Program-made: the position numbers and the translations under genes
The notes under the pieces: model-generated
Told to the model about the DNA's origin: nothing
Database searches by the model: none
Seen by the model: only the letters and a program-made list of their open reading frames with translations
From: a virus
DNA length: 64,000 nt
Strand: one strand, 5' to 3'
IMG/VR virus record: IMGVR_UViG_3300037071_003688
Shown here: piece by piece, positions 14,609-39,611 of the stretch
Numbering within the stretch: the first letter of the stretch is position 1
Layout: every line of letters begins with the position of its first letter

Positions 14609-14661
14609 CCACGTCCGTGTAATCCCCGGGGGCTACCATGCTGCGACATGGCCGTGGGAGG

Positions 14662-16752
14662 ATGAACGTGGCTGCTCGACAGAAGGCCGACACCCGCAAG
14701 CTGCGACTGTTCGCCCGGGAAACGAAGCGCCACGGCGACTTCGCGATGGTGATGCCCCGTGCCACGGCCGGGTTGAAGCAGATCAAGGAAGGCTTCGAGC
14801 CACGCAACCTGCGTGACGGCTGGGCACGCGACGCCTACGTATTCGCCGACGAGATCGGCGAGGTCGGGTTCGTGATGAACCTGCAAGCCAACACCGGCGC
14901 CCAATGCGCGCTGCAACCCCAGAAGTACGACGTCGAGACTCGCCAGTGGTTGGAGACCGACGACGAGCGGGTGCTGCGAGTCCACGCCGCGTTCGTCGGC
15001 CCGCAGGGCGGCTCGGCCGAGTTGATGCGCCGCGGCTTCCTGCATCTCGGCATCGCCGGGGAAACCTTGCTGCTCGGCTCACCGGTCGATGAGGTCGACC
15101 TGAGCTACGGGCTGCACTGGGAGTTCCTGTCGTCGGAGGAGTTGGTGCTGCAACGCGGCGGCAAGGCCGTCCGCAAGTTCGACGGGAACAGCGGCGAAGC
15201 GTTGGGCGACGAGTATTACCTGGCCCGCATCTTCCGGTCGCACCCGATGTTCTCGGCGCTCGCCGACTCCCCGATGCGCCGCGTCCTGGCGATCTGCCAG
15301 GAGATCATCAACCTGACGCAGATGGTGTCGGGCATCGTCCGCTCACGGCTCGCCGCCGGGATCCTGTACGTCCCCGAGGAGATCACCTTCGCGACGGACG
15401 CCGACCCCGACGACCCGGACTCGGATCTCGATGAGGGCGACCTGCGCGACATGGTCGAGGTGTTCCTCAAGCAGTTGGCCGAACACCTCCGCGCCCCAGT
15501 CGAGGATCGCGCTTCGGCGGCTGCGCTCGTCCCCTTGTTGATGCGCGGCCCGGCCGAACTGTTCGACAAGATCGGTCTGATCGAAGTCGCGCGCGGCCTC
15601 GATACGTACGCCCAGGATCTCCGCAAAGAGGCACTCGCCCGGCTCGCCGCCGGACTCGACATCGACCCGGCGTTGATCGAGGGCGCGGCGTCGCTGAACC
15701 ATTGGACGCTGTACCAGGTCGACGCCAACTTCGTCACGAAGCAGGTCCGCCCGACCGGCGACCTGCTGGCCCGGGCGTTGACCGAGGTCTACCTGCGCAC
15801 CATGCTCGAAACGTTCGAGGGGATGGAGCCGACCGAGGTCCGCCTGTACCGGTGGATCTTCGACCCGGCCGCGATCATGGCCCGCACCGACGAAGCCGCG
15901 TCGAGCCGGATCCTGTACGACATGAACGTCCTCTCGGAGGACGCCCTGCTGCGCGCCAACGGCTTCGCCGACGCCGACGCCGTCGAGGACGACGAGTTGA
16001 ACAAGCGGCTCGCGATGCAGATGTTGCTGCGCGACCCGGCCAACATGGGGCCGGTCGTGTCCGATGTCCTCGGCCTCCAAGGCTGGGATTGGTCGAAGCT
16101 GCCATCCGCCGCCGGGGGCAGCCCGTTCGGGACACCGGGGGCGCCGGGCGCCCCGCCCGGTCCGGGATCGTTGGGAGCGCCTGCGCCACGCAAGGGGCTG
16201 CCACCATTGAACGCGACACCCCCGGCGAACGGTCAGCCGCCGAACCCGAACCAGCAGTTCCCGGACAAGACGACCGGGATGCAGGAACCACCGAACCCGG
16301 GCTTCTCGCTGCTCGTGGACCGCCTCGCGGTCGCCGCCGACGCCGCCGTCGAACGAGCATTGGAGAAGGCCGCAGCGCGGTTCGTCACGAAGGCCCGCCG
16401 CGTCGAGGGGTTGCGTCAACGCGTCGAGCACGTGCAAGGCACCGCGGTGCTGACCGCGGTGTCACCATCGGATCTGCTGTCGGTCGACTGCCCACCGGCG
16501 ATGCTGCTCGCCAAGGCGTGGGACTCGTTCGGCGACAACGCCCGCCGGTGGGTCAAGACCTACGCCATGAACCTCGGCGCCGATCAACTCTCCGCCGATG
16601 ACCTGGCCGCGCTCGCCTCCTCGAAGCTGTGCGAGTCGTTGCAGGAGTTGATGACGCTCAACATGCACGAGCGGCTCCCGGTCACGGGCAACGGCACCAA
16701 GGTCAACTCGGCTCTGATCTCCAACGCATTGCGTGCCGCCGGGGTCTGGTGA
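14662..16752 (+). CDS. portal protein
   Basis: about 700 aa, at the start of the head/MuF block; HP.....ADSP.R, SRLAAGILYVP.E, RLA.GLD and NHW motifs typical of actinophage portals; Pro/Gly linker then a C-terminal domain; start uncertain (14638/14662/14668). Confidence 0.8.
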   Translation: MNVAARQKADTRKLRLFARETKRHGDFAMVMPRATAGLKQIKEGFEPRNLRDGWARDAYVFADEIGEVGFVMNLQANTGAQCALQPQKYDVETRQWLETDDERVLRVHAAFVGPQGGSAELMRRGFLHLGIAGETLLLGSPVDEVDLSYGLHWEFLSSEELVLQRGGKAVRKFDGNSGEALGDEYYLARIFRSHPMFSALADSPMRRVLAICQEIINLTQMVSGIVRSRLAAGILYVPEEITFATDADPDDPDSDLDEGDLRDMVEVFLKQLAEHLRAPVEDRASAAALVPLLMRGPAELFDKIGLIEVARGLDTYAQDLRKEALARLAAGLDIDPALIEGAASLNHWTLYQVDANFVTKQVRPTGDLLARALTEVYLRTMLETFEGMEPTEVRLYRWIFDPAAIMARTDEAASSRILYDMNVLSEDALLRANGFADADAVEDDELNKRLAMQMLLRDPANMGPVVSDVLGLQGWDWSKLPSAAGGSPFGTPGAPGAPPGPGSLGAPAPRKGLPPLNATPPANGQPPNPNQQFPDKTTGMQEPPNPGFSLLVDRLAVAADAAVERALEKAAARFVTKARRVEGLRQRVEHVQGTAVLTAVSPSDLLSVDCPPAMLLAKAWDSFGDNARRWVKTYAMNLGADQLSADDLAALASSKLCESLQELMTLNMHERLPVTGNGTKVNSALISNALRAAGVW

Positions 16753-16758
16753 CCGATC

Positions 16759-19700
16759 GTGGCCACCGCCACGTTCGCCAATCCGTGGCATGACGAAATA
16801 GGTCGCTTCGCGCCCAAGGGAACCGGCACGAAGTTCGGCGCGACGCAGGACGAGATGCGGTCTCTGTTCGAGCCGGTGCGTCCGCTCGTGGACGTCCTCG
16901 AAGGCGCCGGTGCGAAGACCTACCTCGTGGGCGGCTCGGTCCGTGACCGGCTGCTCGGCATCGACGCCAAGGACATTGACATCGAAGTCCACGGGCTGAC
17001 CCCCGACGAGACCATCGCACTGTTGAAGGAACGGGGCGCCCGCGTCGATGAGGTCGGCAAGGCGTTCGGCGTGTTGAAGGTGACATTCGACGGCGAGACC
17101 CACGACTTCTCGTTCCCCCGCACCGAGGTCAAGACCGGCGAAGGCCACACCGGCTTCGATGTCACCGTCGACCCGAACCTCGGCATCGAGCAGGCGCTCG
17201 CCCGCCGCGACTTCACCATGAACGCGCTCGCCGTCGACTCCGACGGCAACATGGTCGACCCGTTCGGCGGGGTCGCTGACCTCAAGGCCGGTGTGCTGCG
17301 CCACGTCGGCCCGGCGTTCTCAGAGGATCCGCTCCGCATCCTGCGCGGCGTCCAGTTCGCCGCCCGCCTCGGCCTCAAGTTCGACCCGGAGACCGCCAAG
17401 CTCGCCCACGACCTGCTGCCCGAGTTGGAGAACATCTCGACGGAACGCGTGTGGGGCGAGTTCGAGAAGCTCGGCGGTAAGGGCGTCTCGATGGAGGCCG
17501 GTGTCCAGGCACTCAAGGACGTCGGTCTCGACACCCGCTACGGCAACGTCCACTTCGACGGCGAACCGAACCTGACCGGTCTCACCGGCGACCATCGCGC
17601 CGCCGTCGCGCTCACCGCGATCGGCGTCGACCCCCGCCAGATCGGAGCGCCGAACACCGTCTCCCGCACCATGCGCGACGTCAGCCAGGCGCTCGCGTTC
17701 ACCGGCGACCAGGCCGCATCCCGGACCGCGGCCCGCGAGTTGAAGTACGGCACGTTCGAGGACGCCGCCCGGATCGCAGGCCCAAACGACAACGTCGACC
17801 CACGTGTCCTCACCGGCCCACTCCCCGGACTCGTGACCGGCAACGACGTGATGGCCCGCGGTGTGCGCGGCTCAGCGATCGGCGAGGTCCTGCGCGCCGT
17901 GCAACAGGCCCAGGACAACGAGACCATCGTGACCCGCGAGGACGCGCTCGCCTGGCTCGACAAGCACGCCACCGCCGCTATCCGCCGCTCCGCCGCGTTC
18001 GTGAATCCGTGGCACGACGAGGTCGGACGGTTCGCCCCGAAGGGAACGGGACGCCGGTTCGAGCCGCGCGGCGGCGCCGACGCCCAAGCACAGGCGCTCG
18101 CAGAAGCGATGGCGACACGAGCCGAGTTGAACGGCGGGTTCACATTCGACCCGCGCGGCAACCTGTTCATCAAACCCGATCCGTCGCTGCCCCGCGAGGA
18201 ACATCGCGGCGCTGTCGCCGTGCCCGGCCATTCGGCGATCATCACGATGGAAGCCTTCCAGGACCCGACACGTGGCAAACAGTTCATCCGCGACTACCTC
18301 GACCAGCACGCCGAAACCATCGCCTCGCAACCGGACATCTTCATCGGCGGCTGGCACGACCGAGCGCACGGCGAGGTCGTGCTCGACCTGTCGCAGGTGC
18401 GCCCCCTCGATGAGGCGATCAAACTCGGGATCGAACGCGGCGAACAAGCGATCTTCGATCTCGACAGCGAGGAAGACGTCCCAACTCACGGGACAGGCGG
18501 ACGCGAGAACGTCAAGATAGTTGACGCATCGGGTCAGGGTTTGGTACGATTCAGTCATGGCAGATACCGCGGACCACCGCCAGCAGGCGCCGGACGTAAC
18601 GGTACGTCCGGGCGACCTGGAAGGCTGGGCGGACAAGTCCGAGGAGGAGAAGCAGGCGATCGTGGACGCCATGTACGAGGGTCTGAGTTCGCCAACCCCT
18701 GGCACGACGAGATAGGCCAGTTCGCGCCGAAAGGAACCGGCTCGACCGGGAAGGGCCGCTCCTCGAAGGCGGAGGAGGCCGCAGCGGCGAAGCTCGCCCG
18801 GGCGAAGGCCCGCAAGGTCCCGAAGCCGACCGAGGACGACGTGATCCAAGGCCAGGTCGACGCCCTCCTCGCGCGTGAGGGTTTGGTGCGCGCCGGTGGC
18901 GATCGGCGTGGCAACAACACGGCCCGGAAGAAGCGCGCCAAGGCGCTCGCCGCCGAGTTCGGCGACGGCACGACCTGCGCCTGCCCGGACTGCGGGCAGC
19001 GCATCGCGGCCGACGCGGCAACCGCCGAGAAGCTCGGCATCGACGCGCTCACGCAGGACAAGATCCTGGTGGGCACGTTGGGTGGCTCCTACAAGATGGA
19101 GAACCTGATCCCGACCTGCCCGCCATGCAACCAGTCGCGCGGCGACCGGGAGGGCATCGGTGTCGTCGGCGACGTGCGCCAGACGTGGGGATCAGCGGAA
19201 CGGTTCACGCGGACGGTGGTGCGTCAGCACGGCGACGCCATCGCTCAACGCTTCCAGGAGCGCCGGTCGGCGATCATGAAGCGCAAGGGGATCACGTGGG
19301 AGGAGCACATCGCCGAGAACCCGGACGCGCTCCCGCAGGACTTCGATCGGCTACGCCGCCCGGTCGGCGGGAACTTCGCCGTCGACGGCTGGACCCCCGG
19401 GGAGATCGTCACCGACTGGCTCGATCGTGTCGCCGTCAACGGCCACGCCGTCGACCATGAACTTCGTGTAGACGATCCCGTTCGAGTCGACTTCCCAGGT
19501 GAGCAACTCACCCTCGACCCCTGGGTCACCGACGATCGGGTTGTCGAGGTCATCGGGGGTGTCCCACCCGAACCGCTTGGCTCGCACGATCGTGCCGTCC
19601 TCAACCACAGACCGCAGCGTAGCGAGTTCGGCAACCCGTGGCATGACGAGATCGGTCAGTTCGCGCCGAAGGGCACGGGCACCAACTTCGCCAACATCGC

Positions 19701-22008
19701 CCGTCGCGCGGACGAAGCGGAAGCGGCCGGATCGCAGATCTCAGAACTCGACCTTGAGCAGGCCGCACTGCTCGATGACCGGCTGCGCGAGTTCGGGAAG
19801 GCGATGGGCAGCGACTTCCAGAACGACGACGGCGTCAGGCTGACCCATCACGCACTCGACCAGCGGCATGGGCGTGGGACGATGAACGGACTCGCCGCCA
19901 CCAACCCGGATGGCGTGGTGCTGGGCGCGATCGCCTACAACAAGAACCCCGGCGACTACCACATCGAGTTCCTCGGCTCGACCGGTCTCGTCAAGGGCGT
20001 CGGTTCGCAGTTGGTGATCCCCGTGATGGAACGGGCCGCAGCCGATGGGGCAAAGGTGACACTCAAGGTCGCCGGGACAAAGAGCGCCGCCTCGTTCTGG
20101 GAGTCGCTCGGCTTCGAGCGGGACTGGGAGAGCGCCACCGGCGCCACCATGCAGCCCGCCGACGTGCAGGCATGGGTGGCGAATCTCAACCGCGAACGCG
20201 AGGGTGTCTTGGTCGGCGCAGGCGCAGCACCAGAAGGATGGGATCCCGACGACGACCGCTGGGCTGCCCACGCGATCGAACTCGGGCTGATGTCCATTGT
20301 CGCCTCCGCGGCGCAGTTCATGAACCCGTGGCACGACGAGGTGGGTCGGTTCGCGCCGAAGGGGACCGGGCGCAAGTTCGGTAAGCACGTCTCGTGGCAT
20401 GTCGGCTCAAACGGCTACGAGGTGATGCACAACGGGAAATGGGTCCGGACGCCGGAAGCCATCAAGCACTACGGCGCGCTCGAAGTAGCGCAGCACATGT
20501 CGCCGCTCGAAGCCCGTCAACTCCGTGAGGAGTTGGAAGGCCAGACGATGATCGACCTTCTCAATGACACGGACGTTCAGTACAAGGCAACGGCATCGCT
20601 GGCGGTCCTGACTCACGACCCGAACTTGCACGGCAAGGAAGGTTTCGAGCATCTTCAACGTCAAGTCACCTTCGCCAAAGAGGCCGACCTCGGGCTGGTG
20701 ATGCAGTTGTACGCCGCAGAGCAGTTCGCCTCATGGGAACACTCCGGGGTCGACATCGCCCTGTTGAAGGAAGCCACGCAGGCGCACATGCGCGGTGAGA
20801 TTGACGCCGCCTCACTGTCACGGATGATCACCGAGCAGTACGGGATCACGGTCGAATCGGGCGCCGTTGGCTGGTTCAACCGGGCCTGGCAGATCTCCGC
20901 CGTCTCCCACGAATCAACTGCGATGCAGATCCAGATCGCCGAGCAACGCGGTCTAAGCGCAGCCGATGCGGCGATGCGCGACTACGTCGGCGACTCGACG
21001 CTGGACAAAGCCAACGATCTGACGTGGTCGATGGGAGCGACGATCAACGCCGTGACGTCGGCTCACATCCGCAACACTGAGGAGAAGCTGACCCAGGCCC
21101 CGGAACTGGCGTTGCCGACGATCCACCGAGGCTTGAAGGGTGAACAGTTCACCAGCATCCAGGCCGGTGACACGGTCCAGTCGAACCCCTTGTCGTCGTG
21201 GTCGTTCGACCCGAACCAGGCCGAGCACTTCGCCACCAACTTCATCGACACACAAGGGATCGTGATCACCACCGAGTTCAACCCGGCCAACGTGCTCACC
21301 ATCAGCGACATCAGCGGCATGGGATCACTGGACGAGCGAGAAGTGATCATGATCGGCGAACCGGTCAAGGTCACCCGCGCTCGTCTTCCAACGAAGCCCA
21401 GCGGTTGGGCAGTGATCCCGGAGAACGTGTACCTGATTGACACCCCGGAGAACGTCGACTGGATCACCCGCGAACCCGACGAAGCTCTGACGGCATCGGC
21501 GGCCAAGTTCGCGAATCCGTGGCATGACGAGATCGGACGTTTCGCGCCGAAGGGTCAGGGCAGCACGTCCGGCGGGCTGGACAACGAGGAGGCTGACGCC
21601 GAGTTCGAGGAGAAGTACGGCAACGAACGCCGATCCGGCGACGGCGACTGCTTCGAGGTCGGTTTGCACTTCATCCACTCCATCCCTCGCGGCGAGGAGG
21701 ACCGCTACAAGCTGTGTCACGGCGTGCCCGAGGGCCAAGGCCCGATCGAAGGCGTCCGCTTCGATCACTGCTGGATCGAACGAACCGACCCGCTCCCCGA
21801 GACCATGACCCCCGAGCAGCGGGCGATGTTCGAGCAGTACGAGATGAACATCACCGTGATCGACAAGTCGAACGGCAACGATGTCGAGATGCCCCGACTG
21901 CTGTACTACCAGTTGGGCAGCATCAATCCTCGCGACGTCCGCCGCTACACACCAGACGAAGCCCGCCGCGAGGCCGTCCGAACCGGGGTTTACGGGCCGT
22001 GGACATAG
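16759..22008 (+). CDS. polyprotein 1 (6 tagged modules): CCA-adding tRNA nucleotidyltransferase / unknown domain / HNH / GNAT / ADP-ribosyltransferase-like / papain-like Cys hydrolase
   Basis: YLVGGSVRD..KDIDIEV..RRDFTMNA..EDPLRILR; CPDCG..GGSY..EN....CPPCN; IEFLGS..KGVGS..FWESLGF; HRG..SSWS..EREV; GDCF..HCWIE; six NPWHDE.G.FAPKG tags. Confidence 0.9.
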   Translation: MATATFANPWHDEIGRFAPKGTGTKFGATQDEMRSLFEPVRPLVDVLEGAGAKTYLVGGSVRDRLLGIDAKDIDIEVHGLTPDETIALLKERGARVDEVGKAFGVLKVTFDGETHDFSFPRTEVKTGEGHTGFDVTVDPNLGIEQALARRDFTMNALAVDSDGNMVDPFGGVADLKAGVLRHVGPAFSEDPLRILRGVQFAARLGLKFDPETAKLAHDLLPELENISTERVWGEFEKLGGKGVSMEAGVQALKDVGLDTRYGNVHFDGEPNLTGLTGDHRAAVALTAIGVDPRQIGAPNTVSRTMRDVSQALAFTGDQAASRTAARELKYGTFEDAARIAGPNDNVDPRVLTGPLPGLVTGNDVMARGVRGSAIGEVLRAVQQAQDNETIVTREDALAWLDKHATAAIRRSAAFVNPWHDEVGRFAPKGTGRRFEPRGGADAQAQALAEAMATRAELNGGFTFDPRGNLFIKPDPSLPREEHRGAVAVPGHSAIITMEAFQDPTRGKQFIRDYLDQHAETIASQPDIFIGGWHDRAHGEVVLDLSQVRPLDEAIKLGIERGEQAIFDLDSEEDVPTHGTGGRENVKIVDASGQGLVRFSHGRYRGPPPAGAGRNGTSGRPGRLGGQVRGGEAGDRGRHVRGSEFANPWHDEIGQFAPKGTGSTGKGRSSKAEEAAAAKLARAKARKVPKPTEDDVIQGQVDALLAREGLVRAGGDRRGNNTARKKRAKALAAEFGDGTTCACPDCGQRIAADAATAEKLGIDALTQDKILVGTLGGSYKMENLIPTCPPCNQSRGDREGIGVVGDVRQTWGSAERFTRTVVRQHGDAIAQRFQERRSAIMKRKGITWEEHIAENPDALPQDFDRLRRPVGGNFAVDGWTPGEIVTDWLDRVAVNGHAVDHELRVDDPVRVDFPGEQLTLDPWVTDDRVVEVIGGVPPEPLGSHDRAVLNHRPQRSEFGNPWHDEIGQFAPKGTGTNFANIARRADEAEAAGSQISELDLEQAALLDDRLREFGKAMGSDFQNDDGVRLTHHALDQRHGRGTMNGLAATNPDGVVLGAIAYNKNPGDYHIEFLGSTGLVKGVGSQLVIPVMERAAADGAKVTLKVAGTKSAASFWESLGFERDWESATGATMQPADVQAWVANLNREREGVLVGAGAAPEGWDPDDDRWAAHAIELGLMSIVASAAQFMNPWHDEVGRFAPKGTGRKFGKHVSWHVGSNGYEVMHNGKWVRTPEAIKHYGALEVAQHMSPLEARQLREELEGQTMIDLLNDTDVQYKATASLAVLTHDPNLHGKEGFEHLQRQVTFAKEADLGLVMQLYAAEQFASWEHSGVDIALLKEATQAHMRGEIDAASLSRMITEQYGITVESGAVGWFNRAWQISAVSHESTAMQIQIAEQRGLSAADAAMRDYVGDSTLDKANDLTWSMGATINAVTSAHIRNTEEKLTQAPELALPTIHRGLKGEQFTSIQAGDTVQSNPLSSWSFDPNQAEHFATNFIDTQGIVITTEFNPANVLTISDISGMGSLDEREVIMIGEPVKVTRARLPTKPSGWAVIPENVYLIDTPENVDWITREPDEALTASAAKFANPWHDEIGRFAPKGQGSTSGGLDNEEADAEFEEKYGNERRSGDGDCFEVGLHFIHSIPRGEEDRYKLCHGVPEGQGPIEGVRFDHCWIERTDPLPETMTPEQRAMFEQYEMNITVIDKSNGNDVEMPRLLYYQLGSINPRDVRRYTPDEARREAVRTGVYGPWT
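18511..18550 (+). promoter_or_regulatory. internal promoter within polyprotein 1
   Basis: GTCAA-N5-TTGACG-N18-TACGAT with TGn extension; ATG at 18557. Confidence 0.7.
18557..18715 (+). CDS. overprinted small acidic protein (52 aa) in another frame of polyprotein 1; candidate immunity protein
   Basis: own promoter and leaderless ATG; normal GC3 codons, while the polyprotein frame here is G/R-rich and shadow-like. Confidence 0.6.
   Translation: MADTADHRQQAPDVTVRPGDLEGWADKSEEEKQAIVDAMYEGLSSPTPGTTR
19351..19644 (-). CDS. antisense overprinted acidic protein inside polyprotein 1; candidate immunity protein
   Basis: DGTIVRA...VEGELL...YTKFMVDG..VD.DTIEPV resembles the C-terminal half of ORF 57217-57552; plus-frame codons here are atypically A/T-ending; start uncertain. 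Confidence 0.55.
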   Translation of the reverse strand: MPRVAELATLRSVVEDGTIVRAKRFGWDTPDDLDNPIVGDPGVEGELLTWEVDSNGIVYTKFMVDGVAVDGDTIEPVGDDLPGGPAVDGEVPADRAA

Positions 22009-25000
22009 CGCCGACCATCCCCGTCCCGACCACAGAGGCAGAGATCGGAACCCTGCGCGTCCCGATCGACCCCGACGATCCGCTGCTCGCCGATCAGACG
22101 CTCGTGGCGTCGGCCGGGATCATCGCCGACTTCGAGGACTCGTACCTCGATGAACTGACCGGCGCCGTCGAACAGTCGTTGCGATCACTCCGCCAGATGG
22201 TCGTGCAACGCCTCCGCGCGCACGCCACCATCGCGAAACCGATCGCTGCGTCGGCCGCACGCAACGGCCAGTTCATGAACCCGTGGCACGACGACCGAGG
22301 CCGCTTCGCTCCGAAGGGGACCGGCCGCGCGAACGCGATCCGGACGTGGGGCACCGACCGCAAGGTCACCATCGAGAAGTGGGTGTCGGGTCACAAGCAT
22401 TCGGTGACGACCTCGAACGGCGACGTGATCGTCCTCCACGACCACAACAACGTCCTGTCGCAAAGCCCCGGCGGCGAGCAAGCCATCAGCGACTTGTTGA
22501 ACGGCGCCGCCGACGCACATGACCTGTGCCCGGGGATGAACGTCCCGCAGATCATGGTCAAGAACGTCGACGGGCTGATCGCCGACATGGCCGCGCTGCA
22601 TGACATGCAACGCGTCGAATGGGAACGGCTCCGCAACGTCGGCGCGTTCGTCACCGGCAACAGCCCGGACGGCAATAAGGCGCCGGGCTGGATCTTCGTC
22701 AACCCGGACCGGCTGCACAGTGAGCAGCTTTACGCCCAGGATGACATGCCCGCCATGATCGCTCTCGGCCCGGCCCGCTACAAGGTGATGCACGAGTACG
22801 GGCATCTGCGCATGACCCAAGGTCTCGACTCGGTGTTCGCGATCAACGATCAGTTCAAGTACACGAGCGACTCGCGTCGCAGCGGCGGGATGTCGAAGTA
22901 CGGCAACACGAAACCGATCGAGGCGCACGCCGAGGCGTTCGCCGAATGGGCGGCACGCGGCGGCAACATCGAGCGCGGCCCGAAGGGCCAGTTCCTCACC
23001 GACATCGACTATGTCGTCACGTCGTACGCCAACGCGTTCGGGTGGGGCAAGGACCTCGAACAGGTCGGCCGTCCGCTCGCCGTCGCTGCCGCCGGTGGGC
23101 CGCAGGACCCGATCCCGTTGATCATCGGTGACAGCCCGGAAGGCCCGATCTACATCTACGCGGACGGAACCATCGAGGAGACGCTCGTCGCCTCCGCCGG
23201 GCAGTTCATGAACCCGTGGCACGACGAGATCGGCCGGTTCGCCCCGAAGGGGACCGGCCGCTACATCAAGGTGCTCGGCGAGTTCCCCGGCGAACCGTCG
23301 CAGGAGATGTTGGCGAACGCCGACTTCCGCTACCAGGCCGACATGGGCAAGCGGTTTACGTGGCTGTGGCAACGCACCTATCAGACGCATCGAGCGGTGA
23401 AGCAGATCGCCCGCAATCTGCTCGCCGGGAACGAGCCGTTCGACGGGGTCGATCTCAACGACCCGCTCTTGGAGCGGTACTCGAAGCCATCCCGCTTCGC
23501 GGGCGGCCCCAAGCACGAGTACAACGAAACCGATCTCCACAACGATCTGCAAGCCGCAGCCGAATGGATCCTGGTCCAGCCCGTCGAGAAGCAGCCCGTG
23601 CTCTACCGCGGGGCGATGACCGACGAATCGAAGATGGGTGTCTTCAAGGTCGGTGCTGACATCCCGCTCGACCTGGTCTCGGCGACACCGGACCGGTTCG
23701 AGGCCGCGCCGTACTCGTCACCATTCGGTTCTCCCACGTCCTACCTCGACCCGGTCCGGCTGTCGTTCCAGTTCACCGGCGCCGAAGGCACGAGCCTGCG
23801 TCCGCATGTGACCGGCAACATGAGCGACTCGAAGGAAGTCGTGATGCGGGGACGCGGCCGGATCACACGGATGGAGAAGAACGAGCACGGGATCTGGCAG
23901 ATCTGGGTCGACGCCTCGAACGCCCAAGAGGAGGCGTTGGCCGCGTCGATCGGCGACGACGCCGTGATCCTGGCGATCCTCGACCAACCGTTCCACCACT
24001 ACGACGAAACCGGCGCGCTCGTCGCCGCCGCCGGGCAGTTCATGAATCCGTGGCACGACGAGATCGGTCGCTTCGCGCCGAAAGGCACCGGCGTCAAGCG
24101 GCTCGGCCCGAAGACCCTCAACGACGACCCGACCGCCTACGACAAGGTCGATCTCGATGACATGGAGGCAACCAAGGCCAGCCTCGAAGCGTACGCCGAC
24201 CATGTGACCGCGGAACTCGCCGACATGTTCCCCGGCGAGGAACTCATCTTCGGCCTTGACGAGTATCACAAGATCGCCAAGAGCACCCGGCCCCCCGAAT
24301 ACCATGCTCAGTTTCGGCTGACGAACGCTGACGGCGAAGACGTGGCGAAGATGGCGCGGGTCATCGAGATGGAGGATGACAGCGCATTCGCTGCCGGGAT
24401 GTGGGTTGACGACTCGATGCAGGGCAAGGGCATCGGCACCGTGCTGCAAGAGGGCTTCGAGCACTGGGCGGCATCGCAGGATCTCAGTGCGATCAACGTG
24501 TTCGCCACGATGGTCGGCCGGTGGGCGTGGATGCGCGCCGGTTATGACTGGGCGAACACCGAAGCGTTCGGCGACATCGCCAACCTGCTCGGCGACGCCG
24601 ACCCAGTCGGTCGCTCATTCAGGCGGGCGTGGCAGGACGTCACCATCCCTGACGATCTACCAACGCCGTACGAGTTGTCGAACATTCTCGGTCGCAAAGC
24701 GATCCTCCATCCGCAGTTCCCGAACTGGTCGGGCACCAAGCCGCTGCGCACCCGGGCACTGGCACTCGCCGCCACCGCCATAGCGCCCCGTGAGGAGCGT
24801 CTCGCCAAGGTGCGCGAGGCGTACGCCCAGTGGTGGCCGCAGTACCCGGCCGCGGCCGAGGGCTACATCGTTGACCCGGAGGCCGAGGCCGCATGGGAAG
24901 CGTTGATGCAGGGCGGGCTGGTCGCGGCGGGGCCGTTCGATCTGGACGACTTCAACGTGATGACCGCCGAGGAGTGGGCGCTGGCGTTCGATGTCGAGGC

Positions 25001-26792
25001 AGCGGACATCGTCGGCGATGTCGTCGTGGACGCCGCCACCGGTCAGGCGCTCCGCCCCGGCCTGAACGTGTCGGACAAGATCATCACCGATCTCGTGGAC
25101 CGCCACATCGGACGGCTCCAAGATCTCGGCCCGCTCGTGCAAGCCTCACTGCGCGACGCGCTGCACCTCGCCGTCTCCAACCAGTTGACGCTCGATGAGG
25201 TCATCCGCGAGATCCAAGCCACCGGACCATTGGGAGCAACCGCGGCACGCGCGATCGCACGCACCGAACTCACCGCCGCCACGAACGGCGGGATGTTGAC
25301 CGGATGGAAACGCGACGGGTTCCCGTTCAAGCAATGGATCAGTCTTCACGACGAACGTGTCCGCCATGCGCACCTCGAAGCCGACAAGCAGATCAAACCG
25401 ACCGAGCAGGAGTTCGAGGTCGGCGGCTGGCCCGCCCAATACCCCGGCGACCCACGCCTCCCGGTGCATCTGCGCATCAACTGCCGCTGCTACATGGACC
25501 GCATCGGTGAAGATGGCACGACCATCGGCACACGGCTGGTCGACTCGACCCGCGCCACGCTGTACCGCCTCGCCCAAGAGTTGAACATTCCGGGCCGCTC
25601 GAAGATGCTGAAAGAGGACCTGTTCCAGGCGATCGACCGGTACCGCAACGGGTTCGGGTTCCAACCATTGGAGGAGATGTCCCGGGCGCAACTGCTGATC
25701 CGTGCCCGCGCGGCGGGGATCGTCGGCCGCTCGAAGATGTCGCGCCCCGAGTTGATGATCCGCTTGCGCGACCTGTCGACCGGTCGGACCCGTGACCGCT
25801 GGCTGATCGACGCCGGGCACGGCACCCGCGAACAGATCGCCGCCGTCCAAACCCAACTCGCCGCCGACATCGCCGCGCTGCACCAAGGTCCGATCGTCGG
25901 CGCCGGACCGCCACCATCAGTCGAGAAGGTCGACACGATGCGCCGCAAGGTGTTCCGCCGCTACGGCGGCGCCGACACCGGCACCGCGATGTGCGTCGGC
26001 TGCGCGGCCCGGATGCACTGGTCGAACACGACACGCTGGGAACAGGTGACGCTGATCCGGATCGACCCGAAGATCTCGTGGTCCGCCCGCAACGCGTTCC
26101 CGGCGTGCCTCGCCTGCGCCCCGAAGCTCGCCAAGCTCGGCACGGAGAAGCTCTCGGCGACGTTCACCATCGACAACTCATGGACGGCGATCGCCGCCAC
26201 GTTCACCGGCTGGGGACCGATCCTGGCCCAGTTCGCGAACCCGTGGCACGACGAGCAAGGCAAGTTCGCGCCGAAAGGCACCGGCAAGAAATACGACTCG
26301 GCGGCGATCAAGGCCAAGGTGAAAGCGTCGATGGAGGCCGGGGTCAACGTCGACCGCGTCGGCGACCCGCAGGCGACGCTCTCCAAGCTCGACGCCTGGG
26401 CCAAGCAGATGGGATCCGACTTCGACGCCGACGAAGGGGTCGGCATGATCCGCGAAGCGTTGAATGACGTCGGGGCTGGCTCGAAGTCGTTGATCGCCAA
26501 CCACAAGAACGGGATCGCCGGGATCATCTCGTACGACTACGACCCGGACAGCAAGATGTACATGATCCATCACCTCGGCTCGACCGGGATCGCCCCCGGG
26601 ACCGGCACTCGGCTGGCGACTCAGGTCATGATCCAAGCCGCGTCGAACGGTGCTGGGGTCGAGTTCGAGGCAGCCCAGAACGACACCGCTCCCGAGTTCT
26701 GGTCGTCGCTCGGCTTCGATGTTTCCGACCCCAAGCACGTCGTGATGAGTCCATCCGATGTCGGCGCCTGGATGCGAGACTTCACGGGATGA
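21999..26792 (+). CDS. polyprotein 2: MuF minor head protein carrying zincin metallopeptidase, ADP-ribosyltransferase-like, two GNAT, two Rho-N-like and a degenerate HNH-like module
   Basis: HEYGH..SKYG...EAHAEAF; LYRG..VSAT..KEVV; QGKGIG..W...GY; ARAIARTE..KQW...D.RVR.AH..YPGDP..INCRC (MuF); IPGRSKM.K.DL-like repeat twice; GTG start overlaps the preceding stop; four tags. Confidence 0.9.
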   Translation: MDIAPTIPVPTTEAEIGTLRVPIDPDDPLLADQTLVASAGIIADFEDSYLDELTGAVEQSLRSLRQMVVQRLRAHATIAKPIAASAARNGQFMNPWHDDRGRFAPKGTGRANAIRTWGTDRKVTIEKWVSGHKHSVTTSNGDVIVLHDHNNVLSQSPGGEQAISDLLNGAADAHDLCPGMNVPQIMVKNVDGLIADMAALHDMQRVEWERLRNVGAFVTGNSPDGNKAPGWIFVNPDRLHSEQLYAQDDMPAMIALGPARYKVMHEYGHLRMTQGLDSVFAINDQFKYTSDSRRSGGMSKYGNTKPIEAHAEAFAEWAARGGNIERGPKGQFLTDIDYVVTSYANAFGWGKDLEQVGRPLAVAAAGGPQDPIPLIIGDSPEGPIYIYADGTIEETLVASAGQFMNPWHDEIGRFAPKGTGRYIKVLGEFPGEPSQEMLANADFRYQADMGKRFTWLWQRTYQTHRAVKQIARNLLAGNEPFDGVDLNDPLLERYSKPSRFAGGPKHEYNETDLHNDLQAAAEWILVQPVEKQPVLYRGAMTDESKMGVFKVGADIPLDLVSATPDRFEAAPYSSPFGSPTSYLDPVRLSFQFTGAEGTSLRPHVTGNMSDSKEVVMRGRGRITRMEKNEHGIWQIWVDASNAQEEALAASIGDDAVILAILDQPFHHYDETGALVAAAGQFMNPWHDEIGRFAPKGTGVKRLGPKTLNDDPTAYDKVDLDDMEATKASLEAYADHVTAELADMFPGEELIFGLDEYHKIAKSTRPPEYHAQFRLTNADGEDVAKMARVIEMEDDSAFAAGMWVDDSMQGKGIGTVLQEGFEHWAASQDLSAINVFATMVGRWAWMRAGYDWANTEAFGDIANLLGDADPVGRSFRRAWQDVTIPDDLPTPYELSNILGRKAILHPQFPNWSGTKPLRTRALALAATAIAPREERLAKVREAYAQWWPQYPAAAEGYIVDPEAEAAWEALMQGGLVAAGPFDLDDFNVMTAEEWALAFDVEAADIVGDVVVDAATGQALRPGLNVSDKIITDLVDRHIGRLQDLGPLVQASLRDALHLAVSNQLTLDEVIREIQATGPLGATAARAIARTELTAATNGGMLTGWKRDGFPFKQWISLHDERVRHAHLEADKQIKPTEQEFEVGGWPAQYPGDPRLPVHLRINCRCYMDRIGEDGTTIGTRLVDSTRATLYRLAQELNIPGRSKMLKEDLFQAIDRYRNGFGFQPLEEMSRAQLLIRARAAGIVGRSKMSRPELMIRLRDLSTGRTRDRWLIDAGHGTREQIAAVQTQLAADIAALHQGPIVGAGPPPSVEKVDTMRRKVFRRYGGADTGTAMCVGCAARMHWSNTTRWEQVTLIRIDPKISWSARNAFPACLACAPKLAKLGTEKLSATFTIDNSWTAIAATFTGWGPILAQFANPWHDEQGKFAPKGTGKKYDSAAIKAKVKASMEAGVNVDRVGDPQATLSKLDAWAKQMGSDFDADEGVGMIREALNDVGAGSKSLIANHKNGIAGIISYDYDPDSKMYMIHHLGSTGIAPGTGTRLATQVMIQAASNGAGVEFEAAQNDTAPEFWSSLGFDVSDPKHVVMSPSDVGAWMRDFTG

Positions 26793-29700
26793 GCTTCGAC
26801 CCGGACGACGACCGCTGGGCCGAACGCGCAGCCGAGGTGGCAGTGACCACCATGACCCTCGAACCAGGCGGCGAGTTCACCGTCAAGTTCCGGGCCACCG
26901 AGTTCAACAACCCGTGGCATGACGAGATCGGACGGTTCGCGCCGAAGGGTTACGGGCACATGGGCGGCAACAAGTACAGCCGTGAGGTCGCGGTCCCCCG
27001 CAGCGTCGAGGACGCCGCCGCTGTGTACGCGGCGATGACCCTGTACAACGCCGTCAACCGTGGAGACCCGATGCCCGCCATCCACGAAGCCCTCCACGCG
27101 CTGATCAAGACAGCCGAGGCCGCAGACCAGGACCTCATGGAACGCCTGATCAAACCGGCCGCGCGGGCAATCGGCGACAACGACATGGACACGGCGCACG
27201 AGTTGATCGTTGACGCCGACAGCGAGGTGTTCAAGCCGTTCACCGAGGAGTTCGAGGTCCCGCCACCGGAGAAGATCACGGTCACCGGCGGGCAACCCCC
27301 GGAGTCCGGCTTCGGCCCGACGATCTGGCAGACCGTCACCCCCGAAGGGCACACCATCACGTTCAACAGCCGCGGTCACACCGTGACCGACGAACAGGCG
27401 TACACGATCCTGTCGGCAGCGACGACCGCGGCGCGCGCCGGGAACATGGACCAAGACGTCACCATCCAAGTCCAAGCCTCGTTCAACCGGGACACGATGT
27501 CGCGCGAGCCACTGGTGATGGGGTTCGTCGTCGCCAACCCGGACATCGGCACCGACCCGCATCGAACCGTCAACATCACACCCGAGTTGATCAACGGTAA
27601 CTTCGACCCGGGCGGGAGCACCGAGCGCATCCCGTCGACGTTGACGGCATCAGCGGCGCTCGTGGAACCGTTGCGGATCACCGTGCTGCACGAGATGGGC
27701 CACGTCTCGTTGTTCGAGGAGGCGTTCCACCGGCAAGGCGATCTCACGCAGGGCAAGGAATGGTTCAACGAGCAGATGATTCAGACGGCGAACACGACGC
27801 CGATCACCGACAAGCCGTTCATGTCGCTGTACGCCCAGGAGAACACGACCGAGATGCACGCCGAAGCGTTCGCTGAGTGGACCAACACCGGCGGCAACAC
27901 GAACAACCCGTGGGTGCTACGCATGGCCGACCAGTACGGCTGGTCGACGGGCCGCGCCGCCGAAGACCTGCCATTGGCCGCGGCAGGGGCGCCACCGATC
28001 GAGCCGTGGGTGCCGATCTGGTACTTCCCGGAGGAGCCGGTCATCCTCATCGACAGCCGCGACGGCGCCAGCTACGTGTACGGCGACGCGGCGCTCGCCG
28101 CCACCGAACCCGTTGTCGCCTCCGCCGGGCAGTTCATGAATCCTTGGCATGACGAGATCGGACGGTTCGCCCCGAAGGGGACCGGCTCCAAGTTCGACGC
28201 AGTGAGCGCGATGCAGGACGTGCAGAACGGCAAGCCGGTGTCGGTCACCGGCGTCGAGGCCGTCGACCTCGCGTTGGAGATGGCCCGGCTTTACCATCCG
28301 ATCGACATGACCCTCGTCACGGTCGACGGGTCGCACATGTTCAGTGAGATGCGAGCGAACGGGCGGTCACGGGTCGAGATGCCGCAGATCCCCGGCAAGT
28401 TCCACCCCGCCTTCGAGGAGCACCTGCGCGAGTTGGGTGTGACCATGACTCCGGAGACGATCGACCCCCGCGAGTTGCACGGCACCCAATCCGAGTTGGA
28501 CGGTCAGGCAGTCGGCAACATGATCCAGTCCTACCGGGACGGCGGCTTCAACTTCACGTCGAAGCCGTTGGTCGTCTCCTCCGACAACCGGATCCTGGAC
28601 GGTCACCATCGTTGGGCCGCGGCGGCGATCGAGTCCGCGGCGTGCGGCGGCTGCATCGAGATGCCGATCATGCGTGTCGACCTGCCGATGAGCGAACTGC
28701 TCCACGTCGCCGACGACTTCGTGGACAGTCTCGGCATCGTCCGTCAGGGCCACGGCGAGCACGGAAAGCACAGCCCGCAGCCGCCGCCCCTGCACGAGAA
28801 GATCGCCGCGGCTGTCATCCCACCATCGCAGAATGAGCAGGTGGAGTTCGAGTACGCGACCGACACCGATGACGGGATCACCGACGAGCAACTCGCCGAC
28901 CTGCCACACGGCGACGGCTCCGCGTTCGAGGAGGGGGAGGGCGTGGTCGCTTCCCCCGCCTCGTTCGCCAACCCTTGGCACGACGAGATCGGACGCTTCG
29001 CGCCCAAGGGCACCGGCACGAAGATCGGCTTCGACGCCGACGCCGCCTCCAACCAGTTCGCCGACGATCTCGCCACACTCAACGCCAACGCCGACGCGAT
29101 GGCCGAGCCATACCGCATCCACTACGAACGCGGCGGCGAGAAACAGTCGACGTTCGCTCAGGCCCGCGACGAGTACCTCGCCTACGGCTCATCGGAGATG
29201 GACCGCCAACTCCGCACCAACGGCGACAGCACAGTCAAGGATCCGGCGCACCGGCGGGCGCTGATGAACGCCGTCGTGCTCGATGAAGCCATCGAACGGT
29301 CCGGTGTCGTGTTCGCCGAGGACACCGTCCTGCTGCGCGGCGTGCGCAACACGCAGGCCGGGAACCTGACGGTCGGCACCGAGTTCACCGATCCCGCGTT
29401 CGTGTCCGTGACAGCGTCACCCGGCGAAGCCGCGCAGGCGTCCGGGCAGCAACAACGCCCGGCCGGTTTCCCACCCTCGGCGAACCCGGGCACCATCGTC
29501 GCGTTGAAGGTCCCGAAGGGAACCAAGGCGATGCCGGGCGCCGAGAACGAGAAGGAATGGGTGCTGCCACGTGGCGGCACGTACACCGTGACGAACGTGA
29601 TCGAGGGCGACGGGGTCCGCATCGCCGAGGTCGAGGTGACATTCCCCGAGTCGCCGCCGGTGACGAAGGGGATCCCAACCATCAACGACTTGCTCGAACG

Positions 29701-30319
29701 GACCGCGGGGCAACAAGAACGCCGCGGCCTCGCCGCCTCCGCCGGTGGCCTCATCGTTCACGAGCGCCTCTCATGGGATCCCGCCGACATCGACGTGATG
29801 ACGAACCGCCGCCAGTTCCGGCTGATCTGGGATGCGGGTGTCCTCGCCGACGCCACCATCACGCGTGCCGCGTTCGGCAACCCGTGGCATGACGAGGTCG
29901 GGCGCTTCGCGCCGAAGGGCACCGGCAAGCAGGTCGCCGCCGAGGGCCGGGCACGTGAACTGTTGGCCGGGGAACGAATCGCGCTCGCCGATGTCGACGT
30001 GCCAATGGGAACCCCCGAACAGATCAAGTTGACGACCGACACCCGCGACGACGACGCCCTGTGGGAAACCGCCACACCGATCAAGGTCTCGGCGCAGGAC
30101 AAGTTCGTCGCATCCGAGGAATCCGTCAAGACACGACCGGTGCGCGACGTCGTGCTCGACGGCGAAGCATTCCGACCCGGCTACCCGCCCCGCCTGTACC
30201 AGTTGCCGGACGGCAGCTACCTCGTCGCTGACGGCCACCATCGAATCGTGATGCACAAGCTGCTCGGCACCCCGAGCTTCGACGCAATCGTGCTGCCCTA
30301 TCCGGAGGAGAAGCAATGA
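26789..30319 (+). CDS. polyprotein 3: zincin metallopeptidase / ParB-Srx-like / VIP2-like ADP-ribosyltransferase / ParB-Srx-like
   Basis: HEMGH..SLYA..E.HAEAF; TQ..SSD.RILDGHHRW; LLRG..DPAFVSVT..EKEWVLPRG; LVADGHHR; four tags. Confidence 0.9.
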   Translation: MSFDPDDDRWAERAAEVAVTTMTLEPGGEFTVKFRATEFNNPWHDEIGRFAPKGYGHMGGNKYSREVAVPRSVEDAAAVYAAMTLYNAVNRGDPMPAIHEALHALIKTAEAADQDLMERLIKPAARAIGDNDMDTAHELIVDADSEVFKPFTEEFEVPPPEKITVTGGQPPESGFGPTIWQTVTPEGHTITFNSRGHTVTDEQAYTILSAATTAARAGNMDQDVTIQVQASFNRDTMSREPLVMGFVVANPDIGTDPHRTVNITPELINGNFDPGGSTERIPSTLTASAALVEPLRITVLHEMGHVSLFEEAFHRQGDLTQGKEWFNEQMIQTANTTPITDKPFMSLYAQENTTEMHAEAFAEWTNTGGNTNNPWVLRMADQYGWSTGRAAEDLPLAAAGAPPIEPWVPIWYFPEEPVILIDSRDGASYVYGDAALAATEPVVASAGQFMNPWHDEIGRFAPKGTGSKFDAVSAMQDVQNGKPVSVTGVEAVDLALEMARLYHPIDMTLVTVDGSHMFSEMRANGRSRVEMPQIPGKFHPAFEEHLRELGVTMTPETIDPRELHGTQSELDGQAVGNMIQSYRDGGFNFTSKPLVVSSDNRILDGHHRWAAAAIESAACGGCIEMPIMRVDLPMSELLHVADDFVDSLGIVRQGHGEHGKHSPQPPPLHEKIAAAVIPPSQNEQVEFEYATDTDDGITDEQLADLPHGDGSAFEEGEGVVASPASFANPWHDEIGRFAPKGTGTKIGFDADAASNQFADDLATLNANADAMAEPYRIHYERGGEKQSTFAQARDEYLAYGSSEMDRQLRTNGDSTVKDPAHRRALMNAVVLDEAIERSGVVFAEDTVLLRGVRNTQAGNLTVGTEFTDPAFVSVTASPGEAAQASGQQQRPAGFPPSANPGTIVALKVPKGTKAMPGAENEKEWVLPRGGTYTVTNVIEGDGVRIAEVEVTFPESPPVTKGIPTINDLLERTAGQQERRGLAASAGGLIVHERLSWDPADIDVMTNRRQFRLIWDAGVLADATITRAAFGNPWHDEVGRFAPKGTGKQVAAEGRARELLAGERIALADVDVPMGTPEQIKLTTDTRDDDALWETATPIKVSAQDKFVASEESVKTRPVRDVVLDGEAFRPGYPPRLYQLPDGSYLVADGHHRIVMHKLLGTPSFDAIVLPYPEEKQ

Positions 30320-32595
30320 CCGCCACCTTCGCCAACCCGTGGCACGACGAAATCGGCCGCTTCGCGCCGAAAGGCACCGGCACCAAGGGCGACATTGACG
30401 ACAGCGGCGGGATGACCCGACCAGGATGGCTGGGACTGCACGCCCCCAAGAGCGCGAAGACGCTGACGCGGGTCGCACGGATCCTGGACTCCATGCCCGA
30501 GACCCGCGAAGTAGCCGACCTCGTGAAGGGCGCGGCCGAGGCCGAAGACCCGGACGAGTTCGATGCGTGGATGGAGGACGCCTTGAACGCCATCGCACGC
30601 GCTGGCGGCACGAGCGGCGAGATGCTCGACATCGAACGCCAGTTGGACGAGATCCGCCGCGCCGGGTTCACCATGCCGCCTGTCCTCACGTGGGGGATCA
30701 ACGAGTTCGCCAACCCGTGGCACGACGAGGAAGGCAAGTTCGCGCCGAAGGGCGCAGGCACGAAGTCGTCCGGCGTCGCCGCTCCCGAGGGGACCGATCA
30801 GCCGACCCAGGGCAACGAGGGCGACATCGTCTCGAAGCTCGAAGTGAAGCCGGGCGGTAACCGCTCGACCGGAGTCGACCATGAGGCGCTCGCTCAGGAG
30901 GTGATCAACGGCGGCGACATCGTCGTCAACCCGATCGACGCCGACGACGTGATCCGCAACTTCGCCGACGCACCCCAGGACGTCGTTGACTTGACCGGGG
31001 TCACGGTCGAGGGCGCCCCCAACATGTTCTCGAAGATGCGCGAGTCAGGGCGCGCCCGTACCGAGATGCCGCAGATCACCCCCGACGTGCAACCCGAGTG
31101 GTTCGACACGCTCCGCCAGGAAGGCATCAACTTCGTCGCAAACGAAGTCGACCCGGCGTCACTGTCGGCAACACAGTCGGAACTGAACGGCAAGAAAGTC
31201 GGCGGCATGATCAGGGCGATGGAGGGCGGCACGATGTCGCTCGAAGGCGACGCCCTGCTCGTCTCGTCGGACGGCCACATCCTCGACGGCCACCATCGTT
31301 GGGCGGCTGCGGCGGCGATGTCAGCGGACTGTGGCGGCTGCATCAAGATCCCGGTGATCGTGATCGACCTGCCAATCACGGAACTGGTCTCGTACGGCCT
31401 CAACTGGACTGACGCACGAGGGATCCCCCGCGCCGGGGTCGGAACGCCGAGTAAGAAGCAGGCGGCTGGAATGTCGCCGTGGATCTTTACTATGAAGGGC
31501 GTGACCTTCGCGGCCAAGAACTTCATGGAGGGCGGAACCCCCGTCCCCGAGGGCGAGTACCCGAAGTTCGCGACCGACGCCGAGGACGGCCTCACCGACG
31601 CCGACTTCGTTGGTCTGCCGCAGGGCGACGGTTCGTTGTCCGCCGCCAACGCCAACACGGCTGTCGCCGAGAAGCCAGCCGAAGGCGACGCTGTGACGGC
31701 GTCGGGCGCCCGCCGCCAGTTCGGCCTGGCCGAGTTCATGAACCCATGGCACGACGAGATCGGGCGCTTCGCGCCGAAGGGAACCGGCACGCAGTCCGGC
31801 GGATCCCACCCGCCGGTGACGAGCGGTGACGTCACCATCGAGTTCGATGACAAGGGCGAGATCGTCGTGTCCGACGAGGCGATGGCGCTCGCCAAGCCGG
31901 TCTACGAGGAGGCCCAACGCCGTGAACGGGCGATCTCCGACCGGCTGATCGAGATCGTCGGCGACCGCTCCCCGGAGCAGTACGAGGAACCACCACCGCC
32001 GCAGTTGTACGGCTTCGAGTTCCGCCGCAAGGAACAAGACAAGATCGCCGAGAAGATCGAACGGGAAGTCCTCGAAGCCCACGAGGAAGGCATCGTGATG
32101 ACCCGCGAGCAAGCCGCCGCCAAGATCAAGGACGCGGTGCGCTACACCGTTCACTACACGCAAGACGAGTTCGGCGAGAAAGCGCAAGCCGTGATCGACC
32201 AACTCGCGCAGGACAACCCGGGCGGCAAGGTCAAGAACACGTGGCCCCCCGGCTCGAACAACGTGTACAAGGGCGTCAACGTCAACGTCACCACCGACGA
32301 TGGCTACACGTACGAGATCCAGTTCCACACCCCCGAGTCGCAAGCCATCAAGGACGCCCAACACGACCTGTACAAGCAGGCCCGTGTGCTCCCCAAAGGC
32401 GACCCGCGTCGAGTCCAACTCGAAGCGCAGATGGACCAGTTGAGCAAGGGCGTCGAACCGCCGACCGGCGCGATCGAGGTTTCGACGCCAGAGCGGTGGC
32501 GCGAACGGCTGGCAGCGAGCGCCGCCCGCCTCCGCCACTTCCTCACCCAACGACACATCCTCTCCCAGACCCGACATTGGAGCGTCCATGAGTAA
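30316..32595 (+). CDS. polyprotein 4: short helical module / ParB-Srx-like / RelA-SpoT-like (small alarmone synthetase fold) nucleotidyltransferase
   Basis: ILDGHHRW; R.K......KI..IKDAVRYT..KNTW..YKGVN..EIQFHTPES..H.LY; three tags. Confidence 0.88.
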   Translation: MTATFANPWHDEIGRFAPKGTGTKGDIDDSGGMTRPGWLGLHAPKSAKTLTRVARILDSMPETREVADLVKGAAEAEDPDEFDAWMEDALNAIARAGGTSGEMLDIERQLDEIRRAGFTMPPVLTWGINEFANPWHDEEGKFAPKGAGTKSSGVAAPEGTDQPTQGNEGDIVSKLEVKPGGNRSTGVDHEALAQEVINGGDIVVNPIDADDVIRNFADAPQDVVDLTGVTVEGAPNMFSKMRESGRARTEMPQITPDVQPEWFDTLRQEGINFVANEVDPASLSATQSELNGKKVGGMIRAMEGGTMSLEGDALLVSSDGHILDGHHRWAAAAAMSADCGGCIKIPVIVIDLPITELVSYGLNWTDARGIPRAGVGTPSKKQAAGMSPWIFTMKGVTFAAKNFMEGGTPVPEGEYPKFATDAEDGLTDADFVGLPQGDGSLSAANANTAVAEKPAEGDAVTASGARRQFGLAEFMNPWHDEIGRFAPKGTGTQSGGSHPPVTSGDVTIEFDDKGEIVVSDEAMALAKPVYEEAQRRERAISDRLIEIVGDRSPEQYEEPPPPQLYGFEFRRKEQDKIAEKIEREVLEAHEEGIVMTREQAAAKIKDAVRYTVHYTQDEFGEKAQAVIDQLAQDNPGGKVKNTWPPGSNNVYKGVNVNVTTDDGYTYEIQFHTPESQAIKDAQHDLYKQARVLPKGDPRRVQLEAQMDQLSKGVEPPTGAIEVSTPERWRERLAASAARLRHFLTQRHILSQTRHWSVHE

Positions 32596-39358: not shown

Positions 39359-39398
39359 GTGAAATGTGTTGACAAACCCTGGACGTTCTGCGCATAAT
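39359..39398 (+). promoter_or_regulatory. repeated sigma-70-like promoter driving the ncRNA/tRNA array
   Basis: TTGACA(39369)-N18-CATAAT. Confidence 0.85.
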
Positions 39399-39603: not shown

Positions 39604-39611
39604 CGCCCAAT

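Follow-up and report, generated by a model that had tools for sequence, protein, structure and literature searches.

A probably older gene for a small acidic protein nested in the second frame of a phage virion-cargo gene

The DNA considered here is a stretch of 64,000 nucleotides (nt), referred to below as the window, which corresponds to bases 5329-69328 of the 147,492-nt IMG/VR phage record IMGVR_UViG_3300037071_003688. It contains the gene of a polyvalent cargo polyprotein (P0001) that is composed of modules, each headed by a conserved 16-residue tag. Between module 2, a domain without a known family, and the third tag, the polyprotein frame reads as a G/R-rich linker, and the same bases in the +1 frame form an open reading frame (ORF) for an acidic protein of 52 amino acids (aa) with a net charge of about -9 (P0002). 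We consider it quite probable that this ORF is a genuine small gene, older than the frame that surrounds it, which encodes an acidic, mostly helical protein and became nested within the virion-cargo gene by gene fusion. The protein databases have no entry for the small gene from either of the two phages in which it occurs.

The coding signal of the region is found in the +1 frame. From 18557 to 18680, the GC fractions at codon positions 1, 2, and 3 are.76,.39, and.85 in this frame, a pattern to be compared with.68,.47, and.83 for the whole polyprotein, whereas the polyprotein frame shows.85,.78, and.40 over the same bases, which is an off-frame signature. When 123-nt windows were slid over 14638-32595 (n = 5785), another frame won only in 22 contiguous windows spanning 18520-18705. 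A preliminary description of this DNA, made from the sequence alone, had reported the acidic 52-aa ORF in another frame and the G/R-rich character of the polyprotein frame across it, and both are confirmed; the per-frame coding check that it proposed thus assigns the coding GC pattern to the +1 frame, at a site unique among the windows scanned. The DNA is identical across 9250 nt in the Logan assembly of SRR11673485, which may share reads with the JGI assembly, and because of this identity an assembly slip is unlikely.

An exhaustive HMMER search with the 52-aa query against 1.84 billion representatives returned one match, a protein of 49 aa (P0021, E 1.6e-8), and a profile search added a further 49-aa protein (P0022). 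All three proteins start at the same Met and have the common core VTVRP..LE.WAD.S.EEK.AIVDA.[YF]EGLS. P0021 is encoded by a free-standing ORF on a 921-nt contig (L009), whereas P0022 has genes for an oxidoreductase and a SpoIIE-type phosphatase as neighbours on its 3.9-kb contig, and thus a bacterial setting. By comparing the window with L009 over the shared block of 93 nt, 20 differences were counted, falling 4/3/13 on positions 1/2/3 of the +1-frame codons, and the ratio of nonsynonymous to synonymous substitution rates (dN/dS) in this frame is 0.185 with a dS of 0.79. The L009 equivalent of the polyprotein frame contains a stop. On this evidence the +1 ORF appears to be a real gene under purifying selection. 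The preliminary description had stated that its proposal would fall if there were neither a transcript starting near 18557 nor conservation of the alternate-frame peptide in homologues, and such conservation is present in both P0021 and P0022.

The small protein is a new family. It matched no Pfam family at E values up to 10 and nothing among the PDB sequences or in a Foldseek search of the PDB, a comparison with the protein atlas gave nothing usable (best score 0.78), and no paralogue occurs in the phage genome. In the AlphaFold2 model (predicted local distance difference test, pLDDT, of 64), an extended N-terminus (VTVRP) is followed by helices at residues 18-26 and 29-44. The flanks of L009 are unrelated to the phage except for a decayed tag start (TCGCCAACCTCTTGGCACGAC) about 8 bases after the stop codon, with a score of 31 where 2000 shuffles reach at most 30. 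Since the phase between this relic and the small ORF equals that between tag and small ORF in the phage, small gene and tag were already out of frame with each other before the sequences diverged. About 400 nt upstream of its small gene, L009 also has a stretch on the - strand that resembles the 3' half of a tRNA (195-245, GGTTCGAATCCC T-arm); ARAGORN calls no tRNA at these positions, and the stretch may be an attachment-site remnant.

The arrangement recurs in a related phage, whose protein P0003 (2295 aa; JGI 3300056388) is 72% identical over module 2, the linker, the tag, and the HNH module that follows. P0003 reads the same frame through the linker, with just two one-codon indels as differences. 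Within the linker, a substitution at codon position 1, where the +1 frame has its wobble position, is enough for 13 of the 19 replacements, vs. 135 of 442 elsewhere in the protein (Fisher p = 0.0015). Moreover, 36 of 39 codons would allow the P0003 protein and the small peptide at once, a figure that is an upper bound and not a measurement, where the identity in the polyprotein frame is 58%; in 43 control windows of similar identity, this compatibility has a mean of 65% and a maximum of 79%. These substitutions give indirect support for a +1 gene that would be under selection in this phage as well.

In front of the small gene lies a putative promoter. Its extended -10 consists of TG at 18542-43 and TACGAT at 18545-50, after which come six bases (tcagtc) and the ATG at 18557, so that the ATG does stand 6 nt after TACGAT, as had been noted before. 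The -35 overlaps an exact copy of the palindrome GTCAA-N5-TTGAC. Allowing up to one mismatch, this palindrome occurs 21 times in the window vs. 1.24 expected, and across the genome it stands at the head of about 20 promoters of the type TTGACA-N18-(C/G)ATAAT, which have the same 18-nt spacing and are all on the + strand. The copy at 18511-25 is one of seven exact ones in the genome, whereas the expectation by chance, estimated from base composition, is about 0.05 per whole genome. A generic promoter scan of the 19.5 kb polyprotein region returned only this site and one other, and the same TGgTACGAT is used as the -10 of the promoter before the tRNA at 47428. P0003 keeps the residues that overlie the palindrome and -35 (VKIVDA), TGgTA (GLV), and the ATG (HG) with their spacing unchanged, while 5 of the 10 residues between them differ.

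Since 6 nt separate the -10 from the ATG at 18557, transcription would be expected to begin at the first base of this codon, and therefore a leaderless mRNA is predicted. Leaderless mRNAs are common in Actinobacteria. We hypothesize that the early-type promoter of the small gene, with the palindrome overlapping its -35, would start transcription on the A of this ATG, and that the small protein would be made independently of the late polyprotein and probably earlier. The other promoters of the family are located at 1633, 2563, 3899, 7423, 8691, 39359-43652, 49030, 53941, and 54604 of the window and at 117885-139326 of the record (G000). Many of them are followed by GGAAACCACCACC, either just before the ATG or including it, which looks like a conserved translation-start or 5' element of early genes.

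In two other phages that use this tag system (loci L005 and L007), a gene boundary lies exactly at the position of the small gene, and there the stop of the upstream gene overlaps the start of the next one. The upstream gene encodes extra modules, then CCA, and then an ADP-ribosyltransferase (ART) module which replaces module 2, and the next gene encodes a short acidic leader in frame with the tag and then the HNH module. Both loci are without module 2 and without the small gene. Because relatives have a gene boundary there, the small gene is taken as the ancestral reading and the G/R-rich linker as a novel, unselected, frame-shifted read-through. In the proposed course of events, two cargo genes (one with CCA and module 2, the other with the tag, HNH, and further modules) that flanked a small independent gene would have merged into one ORF, made possible by an upstream frame that is by chance open over the small gene. 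The upstream frame would thereby pass the small gene one base out of register and rejoin tag 3 in frame via a G/R-rich junk linker. The idea that a separately promoted gene was swallowed by a module fusion, put forward in the preliminary description, is in this way upheld by the phage-type promoter, the stop/start boundary of L005 and L007, and the signs of selection.

The block of module 2, small gene, tag, and HNH is intact in both the phage and P0003, although other modules are shuffled. Downstream of the promoter, the polyprotein frame first offers a canonical start beyond tag 3, at a GTG near 18841. Since modules 3-6 can be reached only by read-through, the 159 nt at 18557-18715 are very probably translated, and thus used, in two frames.

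The preliminary description went further and proposed that the small gene is an immunity gene and module 2 an uncharacterised toxin. The small gene begins directly downstream of the module-2 domain, whose end is at about 18480. Small gene and module 2 occur together in 2 of the 2 close relatives carrying module 2, and the small gene occurs in 0 of the 2 where the ART module is present instead. A complex prediction for module 2 with the small protein gave 0.50 vs. 0.01 for the best of three controls, and was rated weak: of 80 solved complexes 58 reach the mark used, as do 2 of 110 mismatched pairs, but at scores of 0.60 or under it is reached by only 7 of these 80 and by both of the mismatches. 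The prediction used our own shallow alignments of three rows; agreement between its runs is at least 43% of contacts, and the partner pLDDT is at least 51. Position, co-occurrence, and complex score thus lean weakly towards an immunity protein for module 2, while the neighbours of the homologues and the distant module-2 loci, described below, point the other way.

For module 2 as a toxin, no support was obtained. The domain has no Pfam family and no PHROG function, its AlphaFold2 model is unusable (pLDDT 48), and the look-alikes are without assigned function. Its relatives are a free-standing 119-aa protein of Fusobacterium phage phiKSUM and a domain in a giant viral protein (L001), and the other look-alikes are unnamed viral clusters of 135-150 aa (the free-standing phage look-alikes overall have 120-150 aa); an additional viral scan with the module-2 alignment gave no new homologues. 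In phiKSUM (L008 2315-2822), the module-2 homologue is followed by an overlapping ORF of 51 aa, which is basic and dissimilar to the small protein.

Other explanations of the locus were weighed against a genuine nested gene. High-GC genomes contain many long spurious ORFs, and a looser match to the hexamers has an expectation of 0.15 per window, so that a promoter-like string might meet an open alternate frame by chance; nevertheless, this is scarcely credible, because palindrome, spacing, -10, and ATG position coincide, the frame signal is unique, and the homologues are under purifying selection. As far as sequence evidence goes, the chance explanation can be regarded as already refuted. A fossil, in which the +1 ORF and promoter would be what is left of an earlier start of the downstream gene, without present expression or selection, would agree with the gene start at the same position in relatives and with a polyprotein frame that is open and required for modules 3-6. 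It is nonetheless improbable, since in L005 and L007 the downstream genes have leaders that bear no relation to the small protein and share the frame of the tag, whereas in the phage and in L009 the small ORF and the tag are in different frames. Furthermore, the +1 coding signature is undecayed though the fusion predates the split from the 72%-identical relative, and the low dN/dS against the free-standing homologue also argues against decay.

It is very improbable that there is no second gene and that the polyprotein is read through the alternate frame, whether by two indel errors or mutations or by programmed frameshifts. The alternate-frame peptide does resemble the acidic tails which precede other tags in frame, and a -1 shift near 18682 would join ...YEG to SEFANPWHDE. 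However, the alternate frame has a TAG just upstream, at 18517-19, the DNA is identical in the second assembly, the gene call of the relative is in the same frame with 3-nt indels only, no slippery site of the type X XXY YYZ was found near 18680 by direct reading, and the homologues are complete 49-aa proteins with the same Met start that end before the tag relic. A programmed -1 frameshift leading from the small ORF into tag 3 was likewise rejected, for there is no slippery site and the homologues end at 49 aa. A codon-aligned antisense ORF at 18551-19021, which has the same GC periodicity, was rejected because the L009 differences fall at its first codon positions and because it runs into polyprotein-frame sequence. 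On the other hand, the gene may be real and its product something other than an antidote to module 2, perhaps an early regulator that acts as a ribbon-helix-helix-like dimer on the palindrome, or an acidic inhibitor of another target such as HNH or a host defence (a DNA mimic). An extended N-terminus with two helices, as in the predicted topology, recalls ribbon-helix-helix proteins such as Arc/CopG, and the small gene's own promoter has the exact palindrome that is found in about 20 early promoters; the strong acidity is as in nuclease inhibitors and DNA mimics, an HNH module follows, and the free-standing homologues have no module-2 neighbour. This alternative is tenable, although we would not call it probable. 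No ribbon-helix-helix or other family was found in Pfam, PDB sequences, or Foldseek, the model covers only the helix-helix part of such a fold, and a net charge this negative would be uncommon in a protein that binds DNA. L005 and L007 have HNH but not the small gene, whereas module 2 and the small gene are found together, and the pairing with module 2 scored far over the controls, though weakly.

Returning to the reading of the +1 ORF as a nested, separately promoted gene whose product acts on module 2, several observations weigh against it. The site at 18511 had been described as a full copy of the phage promoter; this holds for the palindrome, TTGACG, and the 18-nt spacing, but the site has neither the spacer box of the family (aaacc..gg.c..ctgcg), its own spacer being catcgggtcagggtttgg, nor a CATAAT/GATAAT -10. 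Because of these two gaps it is a member of the promoter family by architecture and not a full copy; it also lies inside a 1749-aa ORF, whereas the family is intergenic. The promoter, the start site, and leaderless translation at 18557 are all things that we infer. In the comparison with P0003, the protein of that phage was combined with the codons of the window, and selection on the frame was deduced from the protein by itself. The polyprotein frame stays open in about one third of synonymous recodings (p = 0.34), and its openness is therefore no proof of selection. Three members of the small-protein family are known in all; GTDB species genomes (searched by alignment and a degenerate pattern), IMG/VR (by the pattern), GenBank phages, and PLSDB plasmids yielded no further copies, and a first, word-based search was also empty. 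With regard to module 2, the domain has no known toxic fold, both chains are of low confidence in the complex run, module 2 is not a neighbour of the free-standing homologues, and the search for a similar small gene behind module-2 homologues, which the preliminary description had suggested, revealed none that is recognisable at the distant module-2 loci.

Taking these points together with the modelling, the chance that the small protein binds and neutralises module 2 is judged to be somewhat below even. Neutralisation would limit the activity of module 2 in the cell that produces or receives it. A fuller scenario, in which the nested gene is the antidote to virion-delivered module 2, is expressed from an early leaderless transcript, and turns the cargo off on schedule, while the orphan 49-aa copies are kept by bacteria or mobile elements as protection, is possible but rather unlikely. 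No integrase is detectable in the phage, so such an antidote would act within lytic infection and not as lysogen immunity.

The features of the locus are collected in Table 1. The phage genome has a GC content of about 65%, and the record is rated 97% complete. Outside the window, the last ~125 nt of the record (G000:C1:147366-147492) repeat its first ~122 nt (1-125), one family promoter included, and because its end repeats its start, the "linear" record probably represents a complete genome that is either closed or terminally redundant. Of four large ORFs in a row, P0001 comes first; it directly follows a 704-aa ORF at 14638-16752. Its modules are a CCA-adding nucleotidyltransferase (PolyA_pol), module 2, HNH, GNAT, and two others; neighbouring ORFs carry MuF, Rho_N, ART, and zincin domains. 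An Rfam scan of 18000-19200 found no RNA family.

Table 1. Positions of the small gene, its putative promoter, and the surrounding parts of the polyprotein gene in the window
Feature	Position	Strand	Description
Polyvalent cargo polyprotein 1 (P0001, 1749 aa)	16759-22008	+	six tags and modules; reading frame open throughout
Tag 2 (NPWHDEVGRFAPKGTG)	18004-18051	+	heads module 2
Module 2	18052-18495	+	domain without known family: NGGFTFDP ... GGW ... LD.S ... Q.AI.DL
Palindrome GTCAA-N5-TTGAC	18511-18525		exact; GTCAA 18511-15, GATAG, TTGAC 18521-25; possible operator
Promoter core (predicted)	18521-18550	+	-35 TTGACG 18521-26, 18-nt spacer, extended -10 TGgTACGAT 18542-50
G/R-rich polyprotein "linker"	18556-18693	+	polyprotein frame read over the small gene
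Nested small gene (P0002, 52 aa, acidic; probable)	18557-18715	+	+1 frame relative to the polyprotein; TAG 18713-15 inside tag 3
Tag 3 (NPWHDEIGQFAPKGTG)	18694-18741	+	first tag of the separate gene in L005 and L007
Module 3, HNH nuclease-like domain	18742-19632	+	downstream of the small gene

The 16-residue tag, F.NPWHDEIGRFAPKGTG, has 17 copies on the + strand in the four large ORFs (16759-32595), and each heads a new module; it occurs once more at the very start of a - strand ORF at 47085. Most copies are preceded by the motif (V/I)ASA(G/A)QF, which tag 3 is without because the small gene overlaps it. The stop codon of the small gene is provided by a rare ATA codon of tag 3. The Ile of the tag is encoded by this rare ATA only in tag 1 and tag 3 (16795-16800, 18709-18715), and the first tag of the separate downstream gene of L005 (about 4105) also has an ATA Ile; ATA gives TAG in the +1 frame. 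In the slot of module 2 after CCA, an ART-like module is found in L005 (1368-4004) and L007 (264-4031), which suggests that modules are exchanged cassette-like behind constant tags. An acidic (W/F)DPDDDRWA segment stands in frame after one GNAT module and forms the N-terminus of the next ORF after the other (20240; 26789-26830), and stops and starts within the module array seem to come and go.

Phage genes embedded in an alternate frame are known from lambda, where Rz1 lies inside Rz, and from phiX174, with genes B, K, and E. As in these cases, a complete small gene would occupy the +1 register of a larger gene, with both frames giving protein. The present locus differs in that the small gene is older, as its free-standing homologues indicate, the host frame across it is a junk linker, the small gene has a predicted promoter of its own and probably a leaderless mRNA, and the host gene is a multi-module cargo polyprotein made by fusion. 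In nuclease colicin operons of the E2-E9 type, the constitutive promoter of the immunity gene is inside the colicin structural gene. The likeness would consist in a small acidic protein right after an effector domain, a promoter embedded in the effector coding sequence, and independent expression. The colicin toxin gene, however, ends before the immunity gene, whereas here the effector frame continues into further modules; moreover, the small protein has no sequence similarity to Im proteins.

Among the MuF polymorphic toxins of temperate phages, 89% of toxin genes are followed by a short ORF without a known family, which is regarded as the immunity gene (Jamet et al., 2017, PMC5576092). They resemble the present case as phage head-associated multi-domain effectors near MuF genes with a small ORF behind the effector, but here no integrase is detectable, the small ORF is nested and does not follow a stop, and the upstream module has no recognised toxin domain. 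The polyvalent proteins of phages and conjugative elements are a class described by Iyer et al. (2017, PMC5512222), and P0001 corresponds to it in having several unrelated effector modules in one phage polypeptide near head genes; it differs in that module 2 matches no Pfam family, those derived from that study included. In a term search, "overlapping" and "linker" were absent from Iyer et al. (2017), with no sign of nested genes being described, and no description of the repeated NPWHDEIGRFAPKGTG tag was found. Nested genes and internally promoted immunity genes are thus both known, and what would be new here is their combination.

The locus indicates that giant phage "polyproteins" may conceal complete, independently expressed genes which are missed by gene callers. 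It also appears to be a clean case of a linker born from an older gene that was read out of frame at a fusion, which is the reverse of the usual overprinting. If the product of the small gene were the antidote, toxin-immunity logic would operate inside polyvalent proteins, with the immunity gene placed in the second frame of the effector gene itself, and module 2 and the new 50-aa protein family would be directly testable as a pair. It would also mean that the cargo enzymes injected by phages are under the control of early phage proteins, which hosts could capture as a defence.

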